Shown: positions 45,982 to 56,689, numbered from the stretch's first letter. The stretch: 64,000 bases of DNA from a virus (IMGVR_UViG_3300035696_000007:108010-172009); one strand, 5' to 3'. Notes: generated by a model not told the origin, from the sequence alone. Numbers and translations: made by a program.

Positions 45982-46029
45982 GAAAATGGTATTATTTAGG
46001 CTTATCACACTAGATGAGTTACTAATAGA

Positions 46030-46117
46030 TGGCGGAGGGCGGAGATCTCGCGTCCCAGCGGCTCGCGCCGCCCCATGAGCTTCCAACTCAGGCCGACCCT
46101 CGGCCGGTTCACCCTCC
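46030..46117 (-). tRNA. tRNA-Ser(GGA)
   Basis: loop UUGGAAG; GCCA. Confidence 0.8.
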
Positions 46118-46400
46118 GAAAAGGAAATCGTTGACAAAACCGCGCCGGGAACAATCGGTGGTCGCGGGGATGTTTACGAAATCATGGTGGCCCGGCAGCT
46201 GGCTCGTGCGCGTCTCGGCCCGGAAGAAGGTCGTGCGCAGCTTCCAGTGCCTGACCTTCGACGACGCGAGGCTGGAGGCCTCCAAGGCCGTGAACGCCCG
46301 GCGCCTGCGCAGGCACCCGCTGCCGACGGCCGTCACCGTGGCGCTGATCGAGGGGCCGGGCCGGACGAGCCCGGAGATGCCCCTCTTCAGCGGCGGAAAG

Positions 46401-46476
46401 TGGTCCCCCCGCCCGGATTCGCGCCGGGATCTGCGCCTTAGGACGACGCGGCCCTGTCTAGTTGGACGACGGGGAG
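46401..46476 (-). tRNA. tRNA-Arg(CCT)
   Basis: loop GUCCUAA. Confidence 0.85.
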
Positions 46477-46477
46477 A

Positions 46478-46553
46478 TGGTAGGGGCGGTGGGACTCCCA
46501 CCCACACTATGCCGGGTTCGTAGCCCGGGTGACTAATAATTGCCGACGCCCCC
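46478..46553 (-). tRNA. tRNA-Arg(ACG)
   Basis: loop CUACGAA. Confidence 0.85.
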
Positions 46554-46577
46554 AAGATTGAAAAAGGTAGTTACGGC

Positions 46578-47000
46578 ATGAACAAGAGCCGACGGGTGAT
46601 CAGCCAGCTGACGGAAGCCGGGCCGGACCAGGGACAGAAGCCCGACGCCCTCGCGGCACTGGTGGCCTTCGCCAAAGAGGTGGTCGAGGCGTTCGAGGAG
46701 CACGAGTCCGGCGACCTCAACGACATCCCGGCGGACATCGTCATCGAGCGCGGCCGGGCCGCGCTGAAGCTGGCCGGCGCGGACGTGTCCAGCCTGCAGA
46801 AGTACAAGGTCGAGCAGCTCTTCGGCGGCGACTGGGGCGACCCGCAGTGGGAGGAGAACGAACACCCCATGCGCTTCGACACCGAGGAGGAGGCCTGGGT
46901 GGAGGTCGACGAGTTCCTCGCCGACGCGGCGGCCGCCGCGGAGGCCGGGCACATGGCGGCGGGGTTCAGCCGGGACGAGTTCCGGGTCGTCCCCGCCTGA
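46578..47000 (+). CDS. acidic hypothetical protein (SRRVISQLTE N-terminus)
   Basis: TAGTTA-N4-ATG; antisense to the tRNA array. Confidence 0.7.
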   Translation: MNKSRRVISQLTEAGPDQGQKPDALAALVAFAKEVVEAFEEHESGDLNDIPADIVIERGRAALKLAGADVSSLQKYKVEQLFGGDWGDPQWEENEHPMRFDTEEEAWVEVDEFLADAAAAAEAGHMAAGFSRDEFRVVPA

Positions 47001-47003
47001 GAG

Positions 47004-47079
47004 TGGACCCCGCGGCGGGATTCGCACCCGCACCACCGGCCTTAGAACGACCGGGCGCTGTCTGTTACACCACGCGGGG
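47004..47079 (-). tRNA. tRNA-Arg(TCT)
   Basis: loop GUUCUAA. Confidence 0.85.
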
Positions 47080-47095
47080 AAGGGGTACTTAGGCC

Positions 47096-47332
47096 ATGAA
47101 GAGCGCCGTCGAGAGGCTGCTGGAGGACGACCGGCAACCGTGGAGCCACGAGAACACGGTCAACGCCATCGTCGGCTCGTTCGTCGGCTTCGACTTGGAC
47201 GCCAGCGTCGCCAGGCTGCGCGTCCTCCTGGCCAAGGTGCCCGACCCGCTGCTGCGCCAGGTCTACGACGCGATGCACGCGGGCGAGGAGGACACCCTCG
47301 CGAGGGGCCCCTACCGGTTCACCGACAAGTGA
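47096..47332 (+). CDS. hypothetical protein (MKSAVERLLE)
   Basis: TACTTA-N4-ATG. Confidence 0.65.
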   Translation: MKSAVERLLEDDRQPWSHENTVNAIVGSFVGFDLDASVARLRVLLAKVPDPLLRQVYDAMHAGEEDTLARGPYRFTDK

Positions 47333-47333
47333 G

Positions 47334-47407
47334 TGGTCGCCCCGCCGGGAATCCCACCCGGGACGCGGCCTTCGGAGGGCCGCATGATATGGCTTCACCA
47401 CGGGGCG
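47334..47407 (-). tRNA. tRNA-Arg(CCG)
   Basis: loop CUCCGAA. Confidence 0.85.
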
Positions 47408-47411
47408 AAAT

Positions 47412-47488
47412 TGGGGCGATCGACGGGGCTTGCACCCGCAACCCGCGGGCTCACAACCCGCTGCTCTGCTGATTGAGCTACGACCGCC
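47412..47488 (-). tRNA. tRNA-His(GTG)
   Basis: loop UUGUGAG; G-1:C73. Confidence 0.9.
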
Positions 47489-47489
47489 G

Positions 47490-47564
47490 TGGGGCCTCAG
47501 TGGGGATTTGCGCCCCCCTGTCCGATTTACAAAATCGGTCCCTCGCTGCCTAGGGGTCTGAGGC
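47490..47564 (-). tRNA. tRNA-Thr(TGT)
   Basis: loop UUUGUAA. Confidence 0.85.
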
Positions 47565-47587
47565 GAAGTCGAAGTTGTAGTTAAGGC

Positions 47588-47908
47588 ATGGAAAAGACTC
47601 CTGCACCGAAGCCGAAGCTGCGTGGAACCATGGCGCCGGGTTCCGCCCTCCTCAGCCTTGTCGCCGACATCGAGGCGATGCAGACCAATGTCCCCGACGA
47701 ATATGAGGGGGATGCGGCTGACCGCGGCTGGTTCGGCCCCTTCGAAACAGGGGTGTCCGCGTACGAGCGGGGCCACTTCATCCTGTGGCCCAACCTTGAA
47801 ATCCTTCTGGTGCAAGCCAAGGCGGCCCTGGAGGCGACCAAACCAAGAGGCTCCGCCGGCCCGGTCGAATCCAAAGCCTCCCGCCTCGTCGACAGGCTAC
47901 TCGAATGA
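47588..47908 (+). CDS. hypothetical protein (C-terminal ASRLVDRLLE)
   Basis: TAGTTA-N4-ATG. Confidence 0.65.
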   Translation: MEKTPAPKPKLRGTMAPGSALLSLVADIEAMQTNVPDEYEGDAADRGWFGPFETGVSAYERGHFILWPNLEILLVQAKAALEATKPRGSAGPVESKASRLVDRLLE

Positions 47909-48390
47909 GCCACCGTTTCATCCTTTTCGGCGGCGGGTCTGGGAACGTCTACGGCGTCAGCGACGCCGCGAGCTTCGAGGAGGCGTGGAAGGAGATCCTG
48001 GCGGCGGGCGGGCCGCTGGGCTACTCGGCTGGCGGGGAGCCCGGGGGCGAGGTCGAGCGCGAGTGGCCCGAGTTCGACGACATGTCGGTGATGCTCGGGG
48101 GCGCGGAGATCGAGAAAAAGGACGGCTACTGGCTGATCACCGCCCGCGACTCGGACGAGGGCCAGTTCGGACTGCTGGACGCCCAGTCCGCCAACTCGGC
48201 GGTGCAAAAGGAGATCGAGGATCTCGGCCTGCAGAAGTACGCCGACGAGTTCGTCGCCGAGAAGGCCGCGCTGGACGCCGAGGCCGAGGACGAGATGCAC
48301 CGCCAGGCGGTCTACGCGCAGGCGCCGCAGCACGAGTCGGTCAAGGCGGCCGCGAAACGGCTGGTCGACGCGCTGCTCGGCGAGGCCTGA
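47905..48390 (+). CDS. acidic hypothetical protein (C-terminal AKRLVDALLGE)
   Basis: coupled ORF. Confidence 0.7.
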   Translation: MSHRFILFGGGSGNVYGVSDAASFEEAWKEILAAGGPLGYSAGGEPGGEVEREWPEFDDMSVMLGGAEIEKKDGYWLITARDSDEGQFGLLDAQSANSAVQKEIEDLGLQKYADEFVAEKAALDAEAEDEMHRQAVYAQAPQHESVKAAAKRLVDALLGEA

Positions 48391-48393
48391 AAG

Positions 48394-48469
48394 TGGGGCC
48401 ACCGACCCGAGTCGCACGGGCAACGTCCTGTTTACGGAACAGGTGCTCTGCTGATTGAGCTACGGCGGC
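48394..48469 (-). tRNA. tRNA-Thr(CGT)
   Basis: loop UCCGUAA. Confidence 0.85.
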
Positions 48470-48474
48470 GAGAT

Positions 48475-48549
48475 TGGTAGGCGCGGGAGGGGTTTCGCCT
48501 CCACCCAAGGGATTATGGGTCCCCTGCTCTGAGATTGAGCTACGCGCCC
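48475..48549 (-). tRNA. tRNA-Ile2/Met(CAT)
   Basis: loop CCCAUAA. Confidence 0.8.
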
Positions 48550-48553
48550 GAAG

Positions 48554-48639
48554 TGGTGCGGCCGGCGCGAATCGCACGCGCACGCCCCGGAGGGCAGCGG
48601 GGTTTAGGCCCGCCGCGTCTGCTGTTCCGCCACGGCCGC
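48554..48639 (-). tRNA. tRNA-Leu(TAA)
   Basis: loop CCUAAAC; variable arm. Confidence 0.85.
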
Positions 48640-48644
48640 GAAGT

Positions 48645-48728
48645 TGGTGGGGGCGGAGGGGGTTGCACCCTCATGCCTCGCGGCCGGGGGTTTTGGGTCC
48701 CCTGCGTATGCTGTTCCGCCACGCCCCC
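48645..48728 (-). tRNA. tRNA-Leu(CAA)
   Basis: loop CCCAAAA; variable arm. Confidence 0.85.
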
Positions 48729-48733
48729 GAGAT

Positions 48734-48810
48734 TGGCGGCGGCGACGGGAGTTGCACCCGCATTTCACCGGCTGAGAACCGGGGTTCCTAGGCTGTTAGA
48801 AGACGCCGCC
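48734..48810 (-). tRNA. tRNA-Glu(CTC)
   Basis: loop UUCUCAG. Confidence 0.85.
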
Positions 48811-48817
48811 ATGAAAT

Positions 48818-48893
48818 TGGCCGCCCCGACGGGATTCCCACCCGTGTCGCAGGCTTGAAGGGCCCGCATCCTGGGATGCTAGAAGACGGGGCG
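48818..48893 (-). tRNA. tRNA-Glu(TTC)
   Basis: loop CCUUCAA. Confidence 0.85.
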
Positions 48894-48896
48894 AAA

Positions 48897-48981
48897 TGGT
48901 ACGGGTAGAGGGACTCGCACCCCCATGCCTTGCGGCGCCGCCTTCTGAGGGCGGTGTGTCTGCTGATTCCACCATACCCGC
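48897..48981 (-). tRNA. tRNA-Leu(CAG)
   Basis: loop CUCAGAA. Confidence 0.85.
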
Positions 48982-48987
48982 GTGAAA

Positions 48988-49245
48988 CTATTCGGCCATC
49001 GCCCTGCGGATCGCGGCGAGCGCGGCCGGGTCCCCGGCCTTGGCCCTCTTGGCGAACAGGGCGAACGAGGTCCCCCTGACGGCGTCGGTGACCGGCTTCC
49101 GGCCGTGGAGCCTCTGGAGGTCGAGCTCGGCGGCGCGGCGGGCGACTCTCTCGCCGTAGGCGTCGCGCAGCCACCGCACGGCGTCCACCGTGCTGCCCTC
49201 CTCCCTGGGCCTGGCCAGGGCGTCGGCTATCCTGACGAGCCTCAT
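48988..49245 (-). CDS. hypothetical protein
   Basis: TACTTA-N4-ATG. Confidence 0.6.
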   Translation of the reverse strand: MRLVRIADALARPREEGSTVDAVRWLRDAYGERVARRAAELDLQRLHGRKPVTDAVRGTSFALFAKRAKAGDPAALAAIRRAMAE

Positions 49246-49257
49246 GCCCTAAGTAAA

Positions 49258-49342
49258 TGGTGCGGTCAGGGGGAGTCGCACCCCCACGGGTCACCCCACC
49301 GGCCCCTCAAGCCGGCGCGTCTGCTGGTTCCGCCATGACCGC
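49258..49342 (-). tRNA. tRNA-Leu(GAG)
   Basis: loop UUGAGGG. Confidence 0.85.
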
Positions 49343-49352
49343 GAAAAATCGT

Positions 49353-49616
49353 TCAGCCCCGGACGTGGTACTCGATGCGCAGCCGGGCCCTGTCCTCCGC
49401 CGAAACGCACTCCCAGCACTCCACCTGGCCGGGGAAGAATACCCGCACGGGCAGGTCCTCGGGGTAGTCGCCCTTCATCTCGACGAAGACGGTGTGGCAG
49501 CGCTTCTCGGCGTCCCAGAGGTTCAGCTGGGCCGCGCACCCCGAAAGGAGCCGCCCGCCGACTTTGAACCTGATTTTGATGCCGTGCGGCGGCAGGAGCC
49601 TGTTGATGCTGATCAT
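49353..49616 (-). CDS. hypothetical protein
   Basis: GTTCT motif upstream. Confidence 0.6.
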   Translation of the reverse strand: MISINRLLPPHGIKIRFKVGGRLLSGCAAQLNLWDAEKRCHTVFVEMKGDYPEDLPVRVFFPGQVECWECVSAEDRARLRIEYHVRG

Positions 49617-49632
49617 GCCCGTAAGAACAAAG

Positions 49633-49708
49633 TGGGGCCTCCTGTCGGATTTGCGCCGACCGTCCTCCCCTTACCAAGGGGTAGCATCGCTGCCTATGCT
49701 TAGGAGGC
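49633..49708 (-). tRNA. tRNA-Thr(GGT)
   Basis: loop UUGGUAA. Confidence 0.85.
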
Positions 49709-49709
49709 G

Positions 49710-49786
49710 TGGTAGCACCGGTCGGATTTGCGCCGACGACCTTCCCCTTATGAGGGGGCTGCGCTGGCTGGCTGCGCCACGGTGCC
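49710..49786 (-). tRNA. tRNA-Met(CAT)
   Basis: loop CUCAUAA. Confidence 0.85.
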
Positions 49787-49793
49787 ATGAAGT

Positions 49794-49872
49794 TGGTGGG
49801 GGCCGAGGCAGTTGCAGCCTCACGGATGGTCCGGGTAAGGGCCGGGTGCCCGTCTACTGTGGCTTGACCCCC
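49794..49872 (-). tRNA. tRNA-Lys(CTT)
   Basis: loop CCCUUAC. Confidence 0.8.
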
Positions 49873-49879
49873 GAAAGTT

Positions 49880-50089
49880 TTCCAGCCCGAGCGTAGCCGC
49901 GATTCTGTTTTATCCGCACATCACTCTAGGCCGCTACCATGCCCTCTTGACGGGAAGCACTACCCTGGGGCCCTTTTGCGTTGCAGCTACCATGCGGTGT
50001 TGGCGGGCCCGCGCCCTCCCGATCGGCTGCTTTGCTGTCGCGAACTTCCTCCGGGGACGAGCCCCGGCGTGCAGTCCTCTTGGCTGGAA
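49880..50089 (-). ncRNA. rnpB: minimal RNase P RNA (~210 nt, S-domain largely deleted)
   Basis: P1 UUCCAGCC/GGCUGGAA, P2, P3, CR-I GAGGAAGUUCGCGA, CR-IV CUAGAGUGAUG, CR-V ACAGAAUCGCGGCUA. Confidence 0.85.
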
Positions 50090-50096
50090 TCGAAAG

Positions 50097-50171
50097 TGGC
50101 TGGGGCGGCAGGATTCGCGCCTGCGCCATCGGGGTTCAAGGCCCCGCGTGCTGCTGTTACACCACGCCCCA
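50097..50171 (-). tRNA. tRNA-Gln(TTG)
   Basis: loop CCUUGAA. Confidence 0.85.
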
Positions 50172-50191
50172 AAAAGCTGTTCTGACGAGGC

Positions 50192-50827
50192 ATGGTCGAC
50201 TACTCGACGATCCCCGCCTCCTGCCAGATCCCCGGCCTGGCGGGCATCTACCGGAAGTGGCTCGCGCCCGCGGAGACGGGCGCCTTCGTCGAGGTGGGGG
50301 CCTACAGCGGCATCGCCTACAGCAACACCTACTGCTTCTGCCTCGCGGGCTGGCGCGGGCTGCAGATCGAGCCGCACCCCGCGACCTTCGCCTCGCTGCT
50401 GGAGAACATGCGGCCCTTCCCGAACGTCGCCTGCGAGCAGGTGGCCTGCTCGGACTGCGACGGGGAGGCGAGGCTGTACGACATGGGGGAGTGCTCCACG
50501 CTCGTGCTGGACGAGAACGCGCGGGCCTGGGGCTGCCGCGAGGACCGGTTCATCGTGGTCAGGACGACCCGGCTGGACGGGCTGCTGGAGAGGCACGCCA
50601 TCCCGCCCGGCTTCGAGGTGCTGGTCGTCGACGTCGAGGGGGCGGAGCTGTCGGTGCTGGCCGGGCTCGACCTGCGGCGGTGGCGCCCGAGGATGGCGAT
50701 CGTGGAGACGCACGAGAAGCACCCGAGCATCCTACACCCCAACGCCTGGGCCATCACCAAGCACTTTGAGGACCGGGGCTACTGCAAGGTCTACGCCGAC
50801 CACATCAACAGCATCTTCGCCCGCTGA
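50192..50827 (+). CDS. FkbM-family methyltransferase
   Basis: FVEVGAYSG..SNT..GW.GLQIEP; RLDGLL; VDVEGAELSVL. Confidence 0.85.
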   Translation: MVDYSTIPASCQIPGLAGIYRKWLAPAETGAFVEVGAYSGIAYSNTYCFCLAGWRGLQIEPHPATFASLLENMRPFPNVACEQVACSDCDGEARLYDMGECSTLVLDENARAWGCREDRFIVVRTTRLDGLLERHAIPPGFEVLVVDVEGAELSVLAGLDLRRWRPRMAIVETHEKHPSILHPNAWAITKHFEDRGYCKVYADHINSIFAR

Positions 50828-50830
50828 AAC

Positions 50831-50906
50831 TGGTGGAGGTGGCGGGATTCGCACCCGCGGCCTACGCGATGCCATCGCGCCGCTCTGCTGGCTGAGCTAC
50901 ACCCCC
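50831..50906 (-). tRNA. tRNA-Ala(GGC)
   Basis: loop AUGGCAU; G3:U70. Confidence 0.9.
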
Positions 50907-50955
50907 GAAAAAGTTGATCCAAGCAGCCGCGCTTAGAGTTCTTGTTTACATTCCC

Positions 50956-51351
50956 ATGAACACGAAACAGACGCTGCAGACACTGTTGAGCTACTACACG
51001 GCGACCCGCAAGATCGGCCACACCCGCGCGATGCTTGCCGGGGCGCAGAATACAGATGGTTGTCTTATTCTCACCGGCGTGGATGACATCGCCCTGACTC
51101 CCCCCAAAGGCGCCTCGTGCGTCAACGTCGTCTATGACGACAATCTGGTCCAACACTTCGTGGGTGTGCGCAAGCCCATGCTAGTGGACAACTCCGCCAT
51201 CGAGCACATCCTGCGCACGTCGCTGGCCGAGATCACCCGGCTGGAGACCCACGTCAAGCGGCTGAAGACCGAGAAGGCGCACCTGGCGCAGGGCAGACCC
51301 GGCCAGATCCCGGCCGAGGCCCCGGCGGCCCCCGGCGAGCTGCCGGCCTGA
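50956..51351 (+). CDS. hypothetical protein
   Basis: ORF, RKIGHT. Confidence 0.6.
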   Translation: MNTKQTLQTLLSYYTATRKIGHTRAMLAGAQNTDGCLILTGVDDIALTPPKGASCVNVVYDDNLVQHFVGVRKPMLVDNSAIEHILRTSLAEITRLETHVKRLKTEKAHLAQGRPGQIPAEAPAAPGELPA

Positions 51352-51354
51352 AAG

Positions 51355-51429
51355 TGGCTGCGGCGACTGGCTACGCTCCAGTGACTTCGGTTTCAGAGAC
51401 CGACGTGTTACTAGCTACACCACACCGCA
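51355..51429 (-). tRNA. tRNA-Gln(CTG)
   Basis: loop CUCUGAA. Confidence 0.85.
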
Positions 51430-51471
51430 AAGGAGTCTTCTTCACCGTCCGAGAACAGACCGTGCGTAGAT

Positions 51472-51548
51472 TGGTCGGCCCGGTGGGATTCGCACCCACG
51501 GTCTCTTGCTCCCGAAGCAAGCGCGATACTAGGCTACGCCACGGGCCG
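51472..51548 (-). tRNA. tRNA-Pro(CGG)
   Basis: loop UUCGGGA. Confidence 0.9.
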
Positions 51549-51556
51549 AACGGAAA

Positions 51557-51632
51557 TGGTGGTCGGCGGGGGACTCGCACCCCCGGTCCCCTGCATGTCG
51601 CGCAGGTGCCTTGGCTGCTGGGCTAGCCGACC
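51557..51632 (-). tRNA. tRNA-Val(GAC)
   Basis: loop GCGACAU. Confidence 0.85.
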
Positions 51633-51639
51633 GGAAAGC

Positions 51640-51716
51640 TGGTCGGGCCGGCGGGATTCGCACCCGCGGTCTCCTGCACCCCATGCAGGCGCGATGCTAG
51701 GCTACGCTACGGCCCG
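51640..51716 (-). tRNA. tRNA-Pro(GGG)
   Basis: loop AUGGGGU. Confidence 0.9.
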
Positions 51717-51721
51717 GAAGA

Positions 51722-51796
51722 TGGCTGCTCGGGCAGGACTCGCACCTGCAACCCTGGTGTTAACAGCACCCCGCTCTACTTTGGAGCTACCGAGCA
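51722..51796 (-). tRNA. tRNA-Asn(GTT)
   Basis: loop CUGUUAA. Confidence 0.85.
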
Positions 51797-51804
51797 ATGG
51801 AAAG

Positions 51805-51933
51805 TGGTGCCGGCGCTTGGAGTCGAACCAAGTCTAGTCTATTAGCAGTAGAAGTAACCCTCGTCATCACTGCGCCTTGCGACGAGAATAGGAGACCCGG
51901 GTGTTTTCTGTGCTACCGTTACACTACACCGGC
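51805..51933 (-). ncRNA. tRNA/Y-RNA chimera 1 (CCA end, GCU loop)
   Basis: GCCGGUG/CGCCGGC-ACCA, D arm, inserted UAUUCUCG-GCAA-GCAGUGA..GGUUACUUC stem, UUCGACU T-loop. Confidence 0.75.
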
Positions 51934-51941
51934 AGAAGCCT

Positions 51942-52071
51942 CCCGGGAGGAAGTCGAGTAGGGGTTTGGCCGGGTTTGCGGCCCGGTGCCTGACCATTTG
52001 GCGTACTGTCCCCTTTCGGGGGCGGTATCGGAATCGAACCGATGAAGTAACCCTAGCCCTCACTGCCCGGA
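51942..52071 (-). ncRNA. YrlA-like Y RNA with circularly permuted tRNA domain
   Basis: GCAGUGA..GGUUACUUC, T arm, GAAA-capped acceptor stem, D arm, CCGCAAA anticodon arm, ACUUCCUC. Confidence 0.75.
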
Positions 52072-52074
52072 AGA

Positions 52075-52151
52075 TGGTGCTCCGCGAGGGACTCGCACCC
52101 CCGTTTTTCCTCTGTGTGGAAGAGGTACCATAGCTGCTAGGAGAGCGGAGC
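52075..52151 (-). tRNA. tRNA-Val(CAC)
   Basis: loop UCCACAC. Confidence 0.8.
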
Positions 52152-52169
52152 GAAAGTGGTAGTTAGCGC

Positions 52170-52466
52170 ATGAGCGAGACCATCAGGCGCCTGGTCGAGT
52201 ACGAGGAGGACTGCCTCTACAACAACCCCATCGAGCCCGACCTCAAGAAGGAGGGCTGGGAGCTGATCGGCACGGGCGGCGGCTGCACGGCGGCCATCAA
52301 GCGCGTCGGCAGGGCGAGCCTGCTGCTCACCGACCAGGCGGAGGCCCCGCTCAGCCTCGACCAGGAGTGCACGCTCGGCGTCTACGACGAGGACGAGAAG
52401 GTCGTGATGACGTTCACCGTCACGGCGCGGCAGGCCCTGGAGCTGGGCCGCACGGCCAGCTGGTAA
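52170..52466 (+). CDS. hypothetical protein (MSETIRRLVE)
   Basis: TAGTTA-N4-ATG; TGGGCTA motif. Confidence 0.7.
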   Translation: MSETIRRLVEYEEDCLYNNPIEPDLKKEGWELIGTGGGCTAAIKRVGRASLLLTDQAEAPLSLDQECTLGVYDEDEKVVMTFTVTARQALELGRTASW

Positions 52467-52468
52467 GA

Positions 52469-52510
52469 TGGCGGGCAGCGTCCTGGTGCGTTTGAACGAA
52501 ATCTCCGCCC
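52469..52510 (-). ncRNA. mini tRNA-like hairpin with GCCA end
   Basis: GGGCGG/CUGCCC-GCCA. Confidence 0.35.
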
Positions 52511-52515
52511 TAAAG

Positions 52516-52592
52516 TGGCGGCGCCAAGGAGTGCTGCCCTCCCCTCTCAACCGTGACAGGGTTGCGCTTTCGGCTAGGTAAGCTATGGCACC
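52516..52592 (-). tRNA. tRNA-Asp(GTC)
   Basis: loop CUGUCAC. Confidence 0.85.
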
Positions 52593-52599
52593 AAGAAAA

Positions 52600-52676
52600 T
52601 GGTCAGCGTGGTGGGATGCGCGCCCACGACCGCCGGTCCCCAAAGCCGGAGCTCTGCTAGGCTGAGCTACACGCTG
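52600..52676 (-). tRNA. tRNA-Pro(TGG)
   Basis: loop UUUGGGG. Confidence 0.85.
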
Positions 52677-53038
52677 AAATTGTTCCGATGAGTCAGTTTC
52701 CTCTCACGGTAGGTTTTTCTCCGGTGGCAGTTGGCGCACCGGACATCACATTTAGCCACTTCCGCGATCACTGACTGTAATGAAAAACTTCGACGTCGGG
52801 CATCCCCAAGGTCGAACAATTTCTTAACTCCTGGTCGATGGTCGAACTCCAGCACGATAGGATCAGTCTCCCCACAATCGACACAAGGATGGGTAAAAAG
52901 GTACCCCGTCAAGTACACAGCTGTTTGCGCACGTACCTTAGCGTTATGTGCCATCGCTCTAGCAACATAAGCACCTTTATTTCTTCGATAATGCGCACGA
53001 GAAGATCGTCTTCGATCCTCTATCCGTTTATAGGGCAT
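52667..53038 (-). mobile_element. HNH homing endonuclease inserted in the tRNA array
   Basis: CVDCGETDPIVLEFDH..EVAKCDVRCANCHRRKT; low GC; stop lies inside tRNA-Pro 5' end. Confidence 0.85.
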
Positions 53039-53055
53039 AATCTTTAGAACAAAAT

Positions 53056-53133
53056 TGGGAGCAGGGGTGGCGCTCGAATCCACGTTATTGGGCTTATGAG
53101 ACCCAGCTGGGACCATCTCCAGTCGACCCTGCT
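53056..53133 (-). tRNA. tRNA-fMet-like (CAT)
   Basis: UGGGU-CUCAUAA-GCCCA, GGG/CCC stem. Confidence 0.75.
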
Positions 53134-53152
53134 ACGATAGGTACTATGAAAG

Positions 53153-53229
53153 TGGTGGGAACGGCTGGCGTTGCACCGGCGACCTCCGCTTTTTCAGAGC
53201 GGCGCTCTACCTGGCTGAGCTACGTCCCC
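53153..53229 (-). tRNA. tRNA-Phe(GAA)
   Basis: loop CUGAAAA. Confidence 0.9.
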
Positions 53230-53355
53230 TGGAGGCATCTGCCGCTGTTTGGGCGGCATACGCGGGCGGTTTCAAGGCCCGGGTGAAGTAACCCTGACGC
53301 TCACTGCGCCTTGCGGCGAGGATCAGGCTTCAAGGTACCTGTATTCACAGATGCC
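53230..53355 (-). ncRNA. tRNA/Y-RNA chimera 2
   Basis: GGCAUCU/AGAUGCC-UCCA enclosing GAUCCUCGCC-GCAA-GGCGCAGUGA..GGUUACUUC. Confidence 0.7.
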
Positions 53356-53359
53356 AAAG

Positions 53360-53493
53360 TGGTGGCGCTGTCAGGATTCGAACCTGAATAGGTCAACTTT
53401 TTGGGTTGATGTGTTTTCCGAAGTAACCCGCCCTATCACTGCGCCTCGCGGCGAGAATAGCCGGGTGGGTGTTGTAGTTTTCACCACAGCGCC
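53360..53493 (-). ncRNA. tRNA/Y-RNA chimera 3
   Basis: GGCGCUG/CAGCGCC-ACCA, UAUUCUCGCC-GCGA-GGCGCAGUGA..GGUUACUUC, UUCGAAU T-loop. Confidence 0.75.
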
Positions 53494-53499
53494 GAAAAT

Positions 53500-53555
53500 T
53501 GGTGGACCGCCCCGGTGATCAGCCAGGCTAGTGCGAGGTTTCCACGCAGCGGTCC
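53500..53555 (-). ncRNA. 56-nt mini tRNA-like RNA
   Basis: GGACCGC/GCGGUCC-ACCA + 5-bp T arm + one hairpin. Confidence 0.55.
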
Positions 53556-53560
53556 GAGAG

Positions 53561-53634
53561 TGGCACGCCCCCAGGGAGTCGCACCCTGCCGCCAGGTTTT
53601 GGAGACCCGGCCCTCGCTCCGAGCTGTGGGACGT
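53561..53634 (-). tRNA. tRNA-Trp(CCA)
   Basis: loop CUCCAAA. Confidence 0.8.
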
Positions 53635-53635
53635 A

Positions 53636-53710
53636 TGGTAGCCGCGTAGGGTGTCGCGCCCTCGTCTCCCGCTTATCGAGCGGGTGCTCTGCTGGTTGAG
53701 CTACACGGCC
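53636..53710 (-). tRNA. tRNA-Ile(GAT)
   Basis: loop UCGAUAA. Confidence 0.85.
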
Positions 53711-53717
53711 AAAGGCA

Positions 53718-53834
53718 TGGGGACGAGCGGGGTTTCACCGCCTTCTAGCTTGCGAGGCCAGTTTTGCCGGCCAGCGAAGGGAACGGGATTCGCGGTCCCT
53801 ATTGTTACCTTTTGCCAGCGTTCTGTTCGCCCCC
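53718..53834 (-). ncRNA. expanded tRNA-like RNA
   Basis: GGGGGCG/CGUCCCC-A acceptor, GGCGG-UGAAACC-CCGCU T arm, extra internal hairpins. Confidence 0.45.
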
Positions 53835-53845
53835 GAAAGGGAAAG

Positions 53846-53932
53846 TGGTCCCGGCGGGAGGACTCGCACCTCCGCAGCCCCGAAGGGCGACTGGGTTACG
53901 GCCAGTTGCAGTTGCTACTGTGCCACACCGGG
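53846..53932 (-). tRNA. tRNA-Tyr(GTA)
   Basis: loop CCGUAAC; variable arm. Confidence 0.85.
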
Positions 53933-53990
53933 AAAAGAGTGCCCGTGATTACGGCTCACGGGCAAAGCCAAATGTTCCGCGTGGAACATG

Positions 53991-55445
53991 CTAAAGCTCG
54001 ACCGCCTCGATGCGGTGGACGAGCGCGGCGCGGTCCTGCTCAAGGATCTTGAACAGGTCGAACACCTTGTCGGACCAGCCGGCGATGCAGTAGACCTTGT
54101 CCTCAGGGAACTGGATGGAACCCTGATGGTTGAGGTCCCAGCTGTAGACCGCCGGACGGACGCCCGCCTTGCGGACGTAGGCCTCGAACGACTGCATGCC
54201 CGTCCGCCCGCTGACCCAGTTCTGCTGGTCAGAGAGGATGACGATACGGGAGTACTTGCGGCCATCCGCCGTCCCGGCGATGAGCCGGAGCGCGCAGTCG
54301 AGGTCGGTGCCACCCCCGGTGAAGGGGATGTGCTTGGCGACCGTGAAGACCGAGTCGGTCAGGTTCAGGTTCACGTACTGGGCGTGGGTGTCAAAGACCA
54401 CCACGTCAGCGTTCCAAGCCTTCGCGAGGATCGCGGTGAACAGACCACCGATTTGCGCCGGGGAACCCTGCATGGAACCGGAAACGTCGAGGATGACACA
54501 CGAGCTGCCCTCGAACACGGGCACGTTCGCGACAGACAGGTCGATCACCTTGGCCAGGGCCGAGGAGATCTGCCGGAACTGCGCGGACGGCAGGCCCGCC
54601 GACTCGACCGCCGCCAGAGCGTTCTGCACCTGGAACGGGAAGATCAGAGCCTTGCGGACGGCCGCCGGGTCGCCGAGCTGGGCGAGGGCCTCCGGGAGGA
54701 CCTCGGGGGCCTGCTGGGCGAGGTTGCGCAGGTTGCGCAGGAGGGCCAGGTACTTGAGCTTGCGCTCGCGCACCAGGGACACCCACGCGTCCTTCTTGGC
54801 CTCGACCACGGACTCCTCGTCCTCGGCCTGGCCCGCCTTGGTGAGCTTGGCCTCCCAAGTCTCGGCGGGGGCGAGGGTGCCCTTCATGAGCTGGCTGAGG
54901 GCCGGGGTGGCCTTCGGGCGGACGAGGTTGACCACGTCCACCAGGTTGAAGGCCGCGCCCTCCTTGCGGTACTTCGCGAGGGCGTAGGCGTCCTGACGGG
55001 ACAGCGCCGCGCCGAGGCCCTTCTTCAGGGAGTTCGGGATCGGCTTGCCGTACTTGGTCAGGTAGTAGGCCAGGATCTCGACGGCGTCATCGGCCCGGTA
55101 GACCACGCGGTCGAAGAACCGCTTGGTCCACGGCTGGCCCTTCACGGCCTTGGCGATCTCGGCCGCCACGGCGTGGGTGATGGAGCGCATGCCGAACTCC
55201 CGGCGGGCGTACAGCGCGGCCTTGGCCGCGAAGGCCGGGTCGACCTGGCCCACGAGCTCGGTGACGCGCAGGAGCACGTCGCTGGAGCTGCGGTAGAACT
55301 GGTCCTGGACGAAGCTGGTCAGCATGGTGCTGACGAGCTCCAAAGCGGCGGTCGGCTTGAAGGCCGGGCCCCCCGCGAGGTTGACGGTGTTGCCCGCAGA
55401 AACAGACTTGCGGGCCACCTTCGGGTTGGTGGCGAAACGGGACAT
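53991..55445 (-). CDS. rsr: Ro60/TROVE-domain RNA-binding protein with vWA domain
   Basis: NLAGGPAF, QDQFY, YARREFGMRS, YALAKY, TWEAKL, ALLRNLRN, FPFQ, DVSGSM, GGTD, ILSDQQ, GWSD; AGGAGG RBS. Confidence 0.92.
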   Translation of the reverse strand: MSRFATNPKVARKSVSAGNTVNLAGGPAFKPTAALELVSTMLTSFVQDQFYRSSSDVLLRVTELVGQVDPAFAAKAALYARREFGMRSITHAVAAEIAKAVKGQPWTKRFFDRVVYRADDAVEILAYYLTKYGKPIPNSLKKGLGAALSRQDAYALAKYRKEGAAFNLVDVVNLVRPKATPALSQLMKGTLAPAETWEAKLTKAGQAEDEESVVEAKKDAWVSLVRERKLKYLALLRNLRNLAQQAPEVLPEALAQLGDPAAVRKALIFPFQVQNALAAVESAGLPSAQFRQISSALAKVIDLSVANVPVFEGSSCVILDVSGSMQGSPAQIGGLFTAILAKAWNADVVVFDTHAQYVNLNLTDSVFTVAKHIPFTGGGTDLDCALRLIAGTADGRKYSRIVILSDQQNWVSGRTGMQSFEAYVRKAGVRPAVYSWDLNHQGSIQFPEDKVYCIAGWSDKVFDLFKILEQDRAALVHRIEAVEL

Positions 55446-55510
55446 GGCGTCCTCCTAGTTTTGGGTTTTAGACTGCCCGATCCGGCGTCGTGCCGGGCCG
55501 GGAGGAGAGA

Positions 55511-55580
55511 TGGGGAGGAAATCGGCCACGGGTTTGTTTTCCTATAACCAGGGAGAAGTAGCCGCGACCTCACTGCCCCA
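55511..55580 (-). ncRNA. minimal Y-RNA-like element
   Basis: GGGGCAGUGA..GGCUACUUC..AAACCCG..GAUUUCCUCCCC. Confidence 0.7.
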
Positions 55581-55597
55581 AGATGTTCGAAAGTGAT

Positions 55598-55697
55598 GCG
55601 CCGGGAGGAAATCGCAGGCGGTGTTTTCTGGTGGGCCTTTCGGCCCGTCCATTTTGTGGTTGGAGTAGAAGTAACCGCATTGCTCACTGCCCAGCAC
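55598..55697 (-). ncRNA. Y-RNA-like element
   Basis: GGGCAGUGA..GGUUACUUC..AACACCG..GAUUUCCUCCC. Confidence 0.7.
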
Positions 55698-55710
55698 ACG
55701 AAGGTGGCCA

Positions 55711-55778
55711 CAGCAGGAGAAAACCGCCGACGGGTTTGTTCATGATGTTAGAAGTAACCGTAAGCTCACTGCCTGCTG
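55711..55778 (-). ncRNA. minimal Y-RNA-like element
   Basis: CAGCAGGCAGUGA..GGUUACUUC..AAACCCG..GGUUUUCUCCUGCUG. Confidence 0.7.
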
Positions 55779-55787
55779 CGATGAAAG

Positions 55788-55864
55788 TGGTACCCCGTGA
55801 GGGACGTGCGCCCTCCCTGCCTGGTTGGAAGCCAGGAGTGCTCGGCTGTTGACACCAACGGGGC
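55788..55864 (-). tRNA. tRNA-Gly(TCC)
   Basis: loop CUUCCAA. Confidence 0.85.
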
Positions 55865-56046
55865 GAGAAAGTTTTGGAAGATGGCTGCCGTGCCCGTGAG
55901 CACTCCCCATGGCGGTAACGTACCCGGGTGTCCCCGCCAAGCGTGCCACCGTTCGGGCCGGCGCAAGTCTCGATCAGCGGCGCGCGGGGGCTGTAGACCC
56001 CCGCAGACCTCGGTGAGGCGCGCCGTCACGCCGGCCTTATCCAAAT

Positions 56047-56122
56047 TGGTGGACCGGATGGGGATCGCACCCACCGCACGCTCCTTGCGAAAGAGCATCG
56101 CCTCTGAGGTACATGCCGGCCC
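56047..56122 (-). tRNA. tRNA-Ala(CGC)
   Basis: loop UUCGCAA; G3:U70. Confidence 0.85.
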
Positions 56123-56240
56123 GGAAGATAGTTTTGGGGCTTTTACCCCTTCCCGTCGAACTCTCGGGTGCCACTGGGGCCCCGTGGAGGGAAGCGGCCA
56201 GCGCGACGACGCCGCTATTGGGTCCCGTCGCTGGCTAAAG

Positions 56241-56315
56241 TGGAGAGGCGTGCTGGAGTCGCACCAGCGCATAGGAGTTTTGCGGACTCCGGCCTTGCTG
56301 CTTGGCTAACGCCTC
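56241..56315 (-). tRNA. tRNA-Cys(GCA)
   Basis: loop CCGCAAA; U73. Confidence 0.85.
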
Positions 56316-56592
56316 AACGGAAGAGCTGCCTGAGGGCCTGGGCGGCGAGGCGGGCCCGGGTGGGCTCGTCGATGTCGCCGGTGACCACGTCGCCGCCGTC
56401 GGTCGTGACCGCGTCGATGTCGGCGTACCAGCCGGGCTCGTTGCCGAGCGAGCCGGGCGCGCCCTCGTTGTAGGCGCACGTGGCGTCCACGACGACGGGC
56501 ACGTCGTCCTCGCCCCGCAGCGTCACGAAGGCGTCGAACCGGACGGTCTTGGATTCGCCTAGGAGCTGCTCAAGGACGGCGCGGGCTTTCAC
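56314..56592 (-). CDS. hypothetical protein (ARAVLEQLLGE)
   Basis: TAGTTA-N4-GTG. Confidence 0.65.
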   Translation of the reverse strand: MKARAVLEQLLGESKTVRFDAFVTLRGEDDVPVVVDATCAYNEGAPGSLGNEPGWYADIDAVTTDGGDVVTGDIDEPTRARLAAQALRQLFR

Positions 56593-56607
56593 GGCCTAAC
56601 TACAGGT

Positions 56608-56683
56608 TGGTGGCTCCCGCGGGATTTCCGCCCGCAACCTACCGCTTAAAAGGCGGCAGCTCTTGATGTTGAGCTAGGGAGCC
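56608..56683 (-). tRNA. tRNA-Lys(TTT)
   Basis: loop CUUUUAA. Confidence 0.9.
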
Positions 56684-56689
56684 GAAAAG

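Follow-up and report, generated by a model that had tools for sequence, protein, structure and literature searches.

The window analysed here, which makes up the final 64 kb of an IMG/VR virus record of 172 kb (CheckV completeness estimate, 76%), contains at 50089-49880 of the minus strand, which is also the strand of its tRNA genes, a 210-nt element that is almost certainly an RNase P RNA homologue. RNase P RNA is the universal cellular ribozyme that trims new tRNAs. The element is a phage-borne, S-domain-minimised RNase P RNA derived from bacterial type A, which retains the entire catalytic domain and a small stub. Its P5 strands are separated by just 46 nt, versus ~165 nt in the M1 RNA of Escherichia coli. 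The initial annotation had placed here an RNA of ~210 nt with P1-P4, CR-I, CR-IV, and CR-V, and the coordinates and parts list obtained in this study are identical. No viral RNase P RNA was found in the searchable literature or in Rfam 15, and no Rfam 15 model detects the phage mini RNase P RNA family to which the element belongs. To my knowledge, no smaller RNase P RNA of the bacterial type has been reported. The element, its parts, and its two immediate neighbours are as follows (window coordinates).

50097-50171, minus strand: upstream tRNA-Gln(UUG), CCA encoded, separated from P1 by 7 nt (Rfam, 53.3 bits; missed by ARAGORN)
49880-50089, minus strand: whole mini RNase P RNA, 210 nt, from the P1 5′ strand to the P1 3′ strand (sequence; RF00373; family model R1)
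50077-50089, minus strand: P1 5′ strand, outer UUCCAGCC at 50089-50082 and inner GAG at 50079-50077
50068-50074, minus strand: P2 5′ strand CUGCACG, pairing with 49914-49920; compensatory changes in 6 of 7 pairs
50051-50067, minus strand: P3 hairpin CCGGGG-CUCGU-CCCCGG, 6 bp (RNAalifold helix; 4 of 5 pairs covary)
50037-50051, minus strand: CR-I GAGGAAGUUCGCGAC, family-invariant, aligning to M1 CR-I and to the RF00373 consensus
50034-50037, minus strand: P5 5′ strand CAGC, pairing with 49984-49987 (3 of 4 pairs covary; 99% of cells paired)
50028-50032, minus strand: P6 pseudoknot 5′ strand AAGCA, pairing with L17 UGCUU at 49955-49959 (3 of 3 tested pairs covary)
49995-50021, minus strand: S-domain remnant, 27 nt (stem and hairpin by RNAalifold, covarying; family-conserved layout)
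49984-49987, minus strand: P5 3′ strand GCUG
49972-49983, minus strand: J5/15 and P15 5′ strand, with an invariant or nearly invariant GCAA (4 of 4 P15 pairs covary; aligned to M1 GCAAGGCC)
49941-49971, minus strand: P16 GCCC/GGGC around P17 and L17, the latter holding the P6 3′ strand UGCUU at 49959-49955 (covariation in 3 of 3 pairs of P16 and 3 of 3 of P17)
49932-49940, minus strand: L15 3′ strand AUGGUA and P15 3′ strand GCG, aligned to M1 GGGUAGG
49914-49931, minus strand: CR-IV / J15-2 GCCUAGAGUGAUG at 49931-49919 and P2 3′ strand at 49920-49914, with an invariant AG..AU core
49894-49913, minus strand: CR-V AUAAAACAGAAUCGCGGCUA, with the P4 3′ strand at 49902-49895 and an invariant ACAGAA..GGCUA
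49880-49891, minus strand: P1 3′ strand, CUC at 49891-49889 and GGCUGGAA at 49887-49880
49794-49872, minus strand: downstream tRNA-like RNA, starting 7 nt after P1 (recognised by its fold; not called by ARAGORN or Rfam)

P1 consists of UUCCAGCC/GGCUGGAA plus an inner GAG/CUC, so that its 5′ strand pairs with 49880-49887 and 49889-49891, and all three inner pairs covary among 24 sequences. The core pairing of P2 is CUGCAC/GUGCGG. The 5′ strand of P4 runs from 50046 to 50038. CR-V reads ACAGAAUCGCGGCUA, and its UCGCGGCU pairs with the AG-U-UCGCGA of CR-I to form P4, leaving the U at 50044 (minus strand) bulged. CR-IV reads UAGAGUGAUG, and P18 is missing from the window copy. In J5/15, the CAA at 49983-49981 contains the equivalents of M1 A248/A249, and the CGC at 49980-49978 is the P15 5′ strand. 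The GGU of L15 (49938-49936) is invariant in 27 sequences and is aligned to M1 G292-U294. In type A RNAs, this GGU is the site that pairs with the 3′-CCA of the tRNA.

The initial annotation had named covariance models as a check. At gathering thresholds, an Rfam search of the whole window returned 15 tRNAs and no RNase P RNA, and a permissive search of 1.4 kb did not find RNase P. When the 224-nt element was searched alone, the single match was RNaseP_arch (RF00373; 49881-50088, minus strand; 16.3 bits, E = 0.0055), and the alignment covers the full model (1-288). Since this score is far below the RF00373 gathering score of 84 bits and close to the maximum of ~14 bits that the model reaches on random genomes (PMC3579882), the match is a lead and not a proof. 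RF00010, whose gathering threshold is 100 bits, has 0 matches in the 172-kb record or the window, and the type T model RF02357 gave no row for the element at E ≤ 10 in a listing of the best match per clan. The minimum free energy of the single sequence is no better than that of shuffles (z = 0.45), as expected for a pseudoknotted RNA. The covariance model of the family (R1, spanning CR-I to CR-V only) has one match in the 172-kb record, the window element.

About 30 copies of the family were found in viral contigs, including those of the cultured phage DLP_6 and of huge phages of 595-735 kb. IMG/VR was scanned for exact CR-I-like and CR-V-like strings and then screened for the two motifs together. 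The two-motif screen yielded ~26 distinct copies in which both motifs lie on one strand, separated by 136-278 nt, and the covariance model contributed L093 and L009/L013 as extra copies. Most of the 119 matches to the CR-V pattern in viral contigs were chance matches. The GC content of the loci ranges from 31% to 67%. A blastn search of the GenBank phages with the window copy found nothing, while AT-richer members led to three further sources: DLP_6 (Stenotrophomonas phage vB_SmaS-DLP_6, KU682439.2), LR756501/LR756503 (735 kb), and LR756511 (595 kb). The DLP_6 copy (L139, at ~105775-106020) is unannotated and has no Rfam match even at E ≤ 10. It occupies a 258-nt gap of the tRNA array, between a hypothetical CDS and a tRNA-Arg(CCG) gene that begins 19 nt after GGCUA. 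L009 and L013 contain an additional R1 match of partial length (96 nt, 27.6 bits; L009:12882-12977, minus strand; L013:4843-4938, plus strand), ~560 nt from the full copy on the same contig, which may be a fragment or a duplicate.

The fold is supported by covariation. RNAalifold recovered P2, P3, P5, the stem of the S-domain remnant, the P12-like hairpin, and P15-P17 from a plain MAFFT alignment of 24 copies, with compensatory changes in 31 of 34 pairs. Before pair counting, the inner P1 and the P4 and P6 pseudoknots were added to this structure. It was found that 91.8% of the 1112 cells are paired, versus 31-47% when the 3′ partners were slid by 1-3 columns, and that the covariation score is 0.637 versus 0.104 at most in the slid controls. 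Changes on both sides of the pair are present in 37 of 47 pairs, and none of 500 shuffles reached the observed values. P4 is paired in 100% of the cells of the 24 copies; its invariance in this set is due to the selection of the set by P4. However, P4 pairing is maintained across four sequences: UCGCGA/UCGCGG in the family, UCGACG/CGUCGG in LR756511 (L141), CAGGA/UCCUG in the Gemmataceae copies described below, and CCGGG/CCCGG in M1. P6 was assessed independently of alignment columns by pairing the 9 nt after P5 with the P17/L17 segment. A run of 5 or more contiguous pairs can form in each of the 24 members (mean 6.2; 21 distinct strands), a length that 36-43% of the controls with shuffled or mismatched partners reach. 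The bulged U, the AA of J5/15, the GGU of L15, the AG..AU of CR-IV, and the ACAGAA of CR-V are invariant in the family. The strings GAGGAAG..C.G, UAGA..AUG, and ACAGAA..GGCUA, which vary little or not at all, can be aligned with M1 as well as with the RF00373 consensus.

R1 was also run over the 4.64-Mb chromosome of E. coli K-12, where the single candidate lies inside rnpB (15 bits, E = 0.4). On the 3-kb rnpB locus with filters off, model positions 1-159 align to M1 nucleotides 61-361 with 31.6 bits (E = 6.5e-9), and the next best match has 4.5 bits. CR-I, P4, P5, GCAA, P15-17, GGGU, CR-IV, and CR-V correspond one-to-one in this alignment. The S-domain of M1 appears as a 146-nt insertion versus ~32 nt in the family, and the P18 of M1 appears as a 22-nt insertion. 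In its P6, its P16/17, and its P2 of 6-7 bp, the architecture is that of bacterial type A, not of type B and not of type T (PMC3579882).

The S-domain had been described in the initial annotation as stripped from the RNA. The reduction is indeed drastic, but a family-conserved stub remains between the P5 strands, and the deletion is not complete. P8, P9, P13, and P14 are absent from the family copies. From P6 to the 3′ strand of P5, the family has a fixed layout: a stem of 3-7 bp, GAG, a hairpin, (C)GYUNNNA, and the return strand of the stem. GAG and (C)GYUNNNA are the 5′ and 3′ sides of an asymmetric internal loop. The hairpin itself is hypervariable, ranging from 8 to >70 nt across the family. 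In the window copy, the stem is CGG/CCG (50021-50019 with 49997-49995), the 5′ loop is GAG (50018-50016), the P12-like hairpin lies at 50015-50006, and the 3′ loop is CGCCAACA (50005-49998); the boundary between hairpin and loop was set by homology, and RNAfold alone favours a slightly different pairing. In full-size RNAs, CR-II/CR-III of the S-domain (the P10/11-P12 module) binds the elbow formed by the T-loop and D-loop of the tRNA. In its position and its hypervariable hairpin, the stub resembles the CR-II/P12/CR-III module, of which it may be a relic. None of the models aligns it to CR-II/III. Its 3′ strand fits a T-loop-like UNNNA pattern in most members and reads CAACA in the window. A kink-turn reading of the GAG/CGYUNNNA loop was dropped, as the 3′ strand has no consistent GA.

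All tRNA genes found in the window are on the minus strand, and no promoter-like or terminator-like site was found between the element and its neighbours. The downstream tRNA-like RNA has a 7-bp acceptor stem (GGGGGUC/GGCCCCC), a T-arm GAGGC-UGCAACU-GCCUC with a UGC T-loop, a 3′ ACCA, and an anticodon-like loop containing CUU with a C before it. A further tRNA-like sequence lies at ~49635-49708 (minus strand), where GGU can be seen by eye in the anticodon loop and Rfam gives only antisense 'Plastid-ycf2' noise. An FkbM-family methyltransferase gene (PF05050, 75 bits; 50192-50827, plus strand) lies 21 nt from the tRNA-Gln gene on the opposite strand, and thus the RNA array is interrupted and does not form a single same-strand block. 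Inside the array, a gene at 53991-55445 on the minus strand, the tRNA strand, codes for a Ro60-type protein with a TROVE domain (70 bits) and a VWA domain. Is a tRNA array the common setting of the family? ARAGORN calls tRNAs within 3 kb at 18 of 29 loci, all on the strand of the element (28/28, 30/30, 27/27, 19/19, 17/17, and so on), and calls none within 3 kb at 11 of the 29. At 7 of the 18 loci, the next tRNA begins 15-19 nt after GGCUA, just past P1, and at 6 loci the distance from the end of an upstream tRNA to CR-I is 30-50 nt. Whether the mini RNA goes together with genome-encoded CCA was also tested, and such a link was rejected, as the carriers encode CCA in nearly all (21/21, 35/36, 12/12) or in nearly none (0/30, 1/28, 3/30) of their tRNAs.

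The putative protein partner is usually not encoded by the carriers. The initial annotation had reported no RnpA gene, and RnpA (PF00825) was not found in the 172-kb record, which is an estimated 76% complete, so that the gene could sit in the missing part. RnpA is absent in 9 of 10 carriers, including LR756501, LR756511, the complete DLP_6 genome, and IMG/VR records with an estimated completeness of 95-100%. In one phage or provirus record of 476 kb, the mini RNA (150 bits, at 355 kb) and an RnpA gene (at 440 kb; L143:1498-1797, minus strand, equal to G001:C1:440379-440669) occur together, 85 kb apart. This RnpA has 99 aa, a PF00825 score of 50 bits, and an RNR motif, and its gene lies beside that of a ClpP-type protease. 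Neither a canonical rnpB nor any other RNase P RNA was found in the 476-kb record, which may encode a complete phage RNase P.

Does the family occur in cells? A scan of 185,579 prokaryotic species genomes with the CR-I 15-mer gave at least 119 loci. Among the matches listed, none belongs to the family by R1; the best R1 score among them is 18.8 bits over 50 nt, and they are chance matches. This 15-mer scan indicates enrichment in viruses and not absence from cells. Among 41 sampled Gemmataceae genomes, 33 have normal type A RNAs, 3 have only a miniature, and 0 have both. In these three MAGs (L265/L271; L286 in G040; L287 in G024), the miniature, with a GGAAAGUCAGGA CR-I and a long P1, is the only detectable RNase P RNA. 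The L265/L271 copy (G008:C18:157905-158125), with a canonical GGAAAGUC CR-I and the long P1, scores 113.7 bits with R1 and is the sole RF00010 match of its genome (82.5 bits, 221 nt). It lies beside planctomycete-type genes with no tRNAs nearby, a chromosomal-looking context. The other two of the three miniatures are in dense same-strand tRNA arrays, and these two copies may be binned phage DNA. In another Gemmataceae genome, a normal rnpB is followed ~900 nt downstream by an additional, weak match to RF00010 (33.5 bits; G014:C1:4869928-4870109).

The homology, the fold, the conservation, the genomic embedding, and the lack of RnpA in most carriers are observations. As to function, the RNA is probably an active mini ribozyme that works with the host RnpA and cleaves the 5′ leaders of phage pre-tRNAs by recognising the acceptor stem and the 3′ end. 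The mini RNA would be transcribed within the minus-strand tRNA array of the phage as part of a pre-tRNA transcript. Since it is tightly spaced with tRNAs and nothing resembling a promoter or terminator intervenes, it is likely to be made in this way and freed by end-processing. Lying 7 nt after the CCA of tRNA-Gln and 7 nt before the tRNA-like RNA, it would be released by ordinary tRNA end-processing, in which RNase P would also cut at the 3′ flank of the element itself. It would then assemble, most likely, with the host RnpA, which is proposed because the record encodes no RnpA. The predicted holoenzyme would cleave the 5′ leaders of the phage pre-tRNAs, holding the substrate mainly via the acceptor stem, the 3′-CCA (by the GGU of L15), the adenines of J5/15, and the metal-binding core of P4, and not by measuring the elbow. 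The phage would thereby gain its own tRNA-maturation capacity during infection. Deletion of the S-domain makes the E. coli ribozyme ~500-fold less efficient in vitro (PMC5839562), and thus activity in vivo is not assured.

The tRNAs of the window phage are themselves unusual. The initial annotation had claimed abnormal T-loops, and rightly so: in the window (46000-57000, minus strand), 20 of the 21 tRNAs called by ARAGORN have UGC, CGC, AGC, or UGG instead of UUC in the T-loop, the GG of the D-loop is absent in 18 of the 21, and CCA is encoded in 21 of 21. It is conceivable, if unlikely, that the mini ribozyme and the elbow-recoded, CCA-bearing tRNAs form a self-contained tRNA supply, and that phages in general have an RNase P lineage of their own, which may even have replaced rnpB in a sub-lineage of the Gemmataceae. 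A mini RNase P that does not read the elbow could then mature tRNAs that the host RNase P and other host factors reading the elbow handle poorly. It may further be supposed, as in the initial annotation, that the RNA gave up its S-domain in co-adaptation to the recoded elbows, the RNA and the tRNAs being a matched, host-independent pair with which the host RNase P copes poorly. The recoding is real and near-universal in the window phage, and only one of the 27 copies is more divergent than the window copy, which has 11 deviations from the family consensus at conserved positions. However, 15 other carriers with the same reduced S-domain have ordinary UUC T-loops and GG D-loops, and none of these 15 is recoded in this way. 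Thus, the reduction is a family trait that predates the window tRNA set and is independent of it, rather than a response to it. In addition, 9 of the 11 deviations are common to other members, including L004, L046, L049, and L119, whose tRNAs are normal, and the deviations sit in L15, J5/15, CR-IV, and the stub loop, not at an elbow-reading site. These results do not support the co-adaptation, which is unlikely.

The absence of RnpA in 9 of 10 carriers would also suit a decoy or regulator, an inefficient catalyst by which the phage sequesters the host RnpA or competes for pre-tRNAs and so reprograms the tRNA maturation of the host. The protein-contacting P2/P3, CR-IV, and CR-V are retained, and the in vitro effect of S-domain loss cited above (PMC5839562) points in the same direction. 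However, the residues that serve chemistry and substrate docking rather than protein binding (the bulged U, the AA of J5/15, the GGU of L15, and P6) are invariant across loci of 31-67% GC, and one phage encodes its own RnpA in addition to the mini RNA. These observations make a decoy quite unlikely.

The short distance to the next tRNA, 15-19 nt after GGCUA at the 7 loci mentioned above and 7 nt after P1 in the window, raises the question of whether the ribozyme mainly acts in cis, on the tRNA fused at its own 3′ end or on its own array, so that the tether offsets the loss of the S-domain. A cis construct of an archaeal C-domain with a pre-tRNA is catalytic (cited in PMC5839562). On the other hand, 11 of the 29 loci lack a called tRNA within 3 kb, the gaps are 100-575 nt at others, and arrays of 10-36 tRNAs need a trans-acting enzyme. 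A module acting mainly in cis is therefore very improbable. Finally, the RNA is short, is under every Rfam threshold, and has lost most of its S-domain, as a decaying, functionless fragment of a host rnpB acquired by a phage might be, but ~30 phage copies in DNA of 31-67% GC share one architecture and an invariant core, all helices show compensatory changes, and the divergence of the copies excludes the recent transfer of one sequence, which makes such a fragment extremely improbable.

If the mini RNA is the active ribozyme proposed here, the family would be the natural counterpart of the C-domain-only ribozyme made in the laboratory. It would show which parts are dispensable in vivo, as P8, P9, P13, P14, and P18 are lost while P6, L15, and J5/15 are kept. 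It would also extend the translation kit of large phages from tRNAs to a tRNA-maturing enzyme. Because a copy is present in the cultured DLP_6, whether an RNase P can work without elbow recognition becomes a directly testable question.

Phage-encoded ribozymes beside tRNA genes are not new as such. The HDV-like theta ribozymes are encoded by phages, lie beside tRNA genes, and are tied to tRNA end formation. They are small, self-cleaving RNAs of an unrelated fold, while the phage mini RNA is a predicted trans-acting RNase P homologue. With type A RNAs (RF00010, M1), the mini RNA shares P1-P5, a P4 with a bulged U, the P6/L17 contact, P15-P17, the GGU of L15, and the GCAA of J5/15; its CR-I, CR-IV, and CR-V sequences are also like those of M1, and its P2 has 6-7 bp. 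The phage RNA has 210 nt versus the 377 nt of M1, and the P7-P14 region of M1 (~146 nt aligned) is replaced by a stub of ~30 nt. The window copy has no P8, P9, P13, P14, or P18, no full S-domain, and no P18-P8 contact. CR-I has GGAAG versus GGAAAG in M1, and the bulged U is one pair nearer the top of P4, with 2 pairs above it versus 3 in M1. In contrast to M1, the RNA is phage-encoded in tRNA arrays, mostly without rnpA, and scores below the gathering threshold of RF00010.

The archaeal type T RNAs are similar in outline. They measure ~200 nt, combine a conventional catalytic domain with a degenerate S-domain, and retain P6 but have no P18 (PMC5839562, PMC3579882). Like the phage RNA, they escape the standard Rfam models. 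However, the P2 of type T has 3 bp, its P15 is shortened, and 2 nt link P5 to P15 (PMC3579882). Type T extends no further than P10, functions together with archaeal proteins, and occurs in one crenarchaeal family only. The phage RNA is carried by viruses and has a bacterial core, a covarying P2 of 6-7 bp, a longer J5/15, and a variable hairpin next to an internal loop that is conserved. The resemblance to type T is convergent reduction and not membership. The engineered C-domain of E. coli (Eco CP RPR; Mao et al. 2018, PMC5839562) is similar in its C-domain, P15-17, and P6-type contact, and in the dispensability of P18 once P8 is gone. This C-domain alone is catalytic with and without protein, depends on the P6-type contact and P15-17, and does not need P18 after S-domain loss (PMC5839562). 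The phage family, which keeps P6 and mostly lacks P18, matches these requirements. Eco CP RPR is a laboratory deletion, whereas the phage RNA is a natural, conserved gene that keeps a small remnant of the S-domain.
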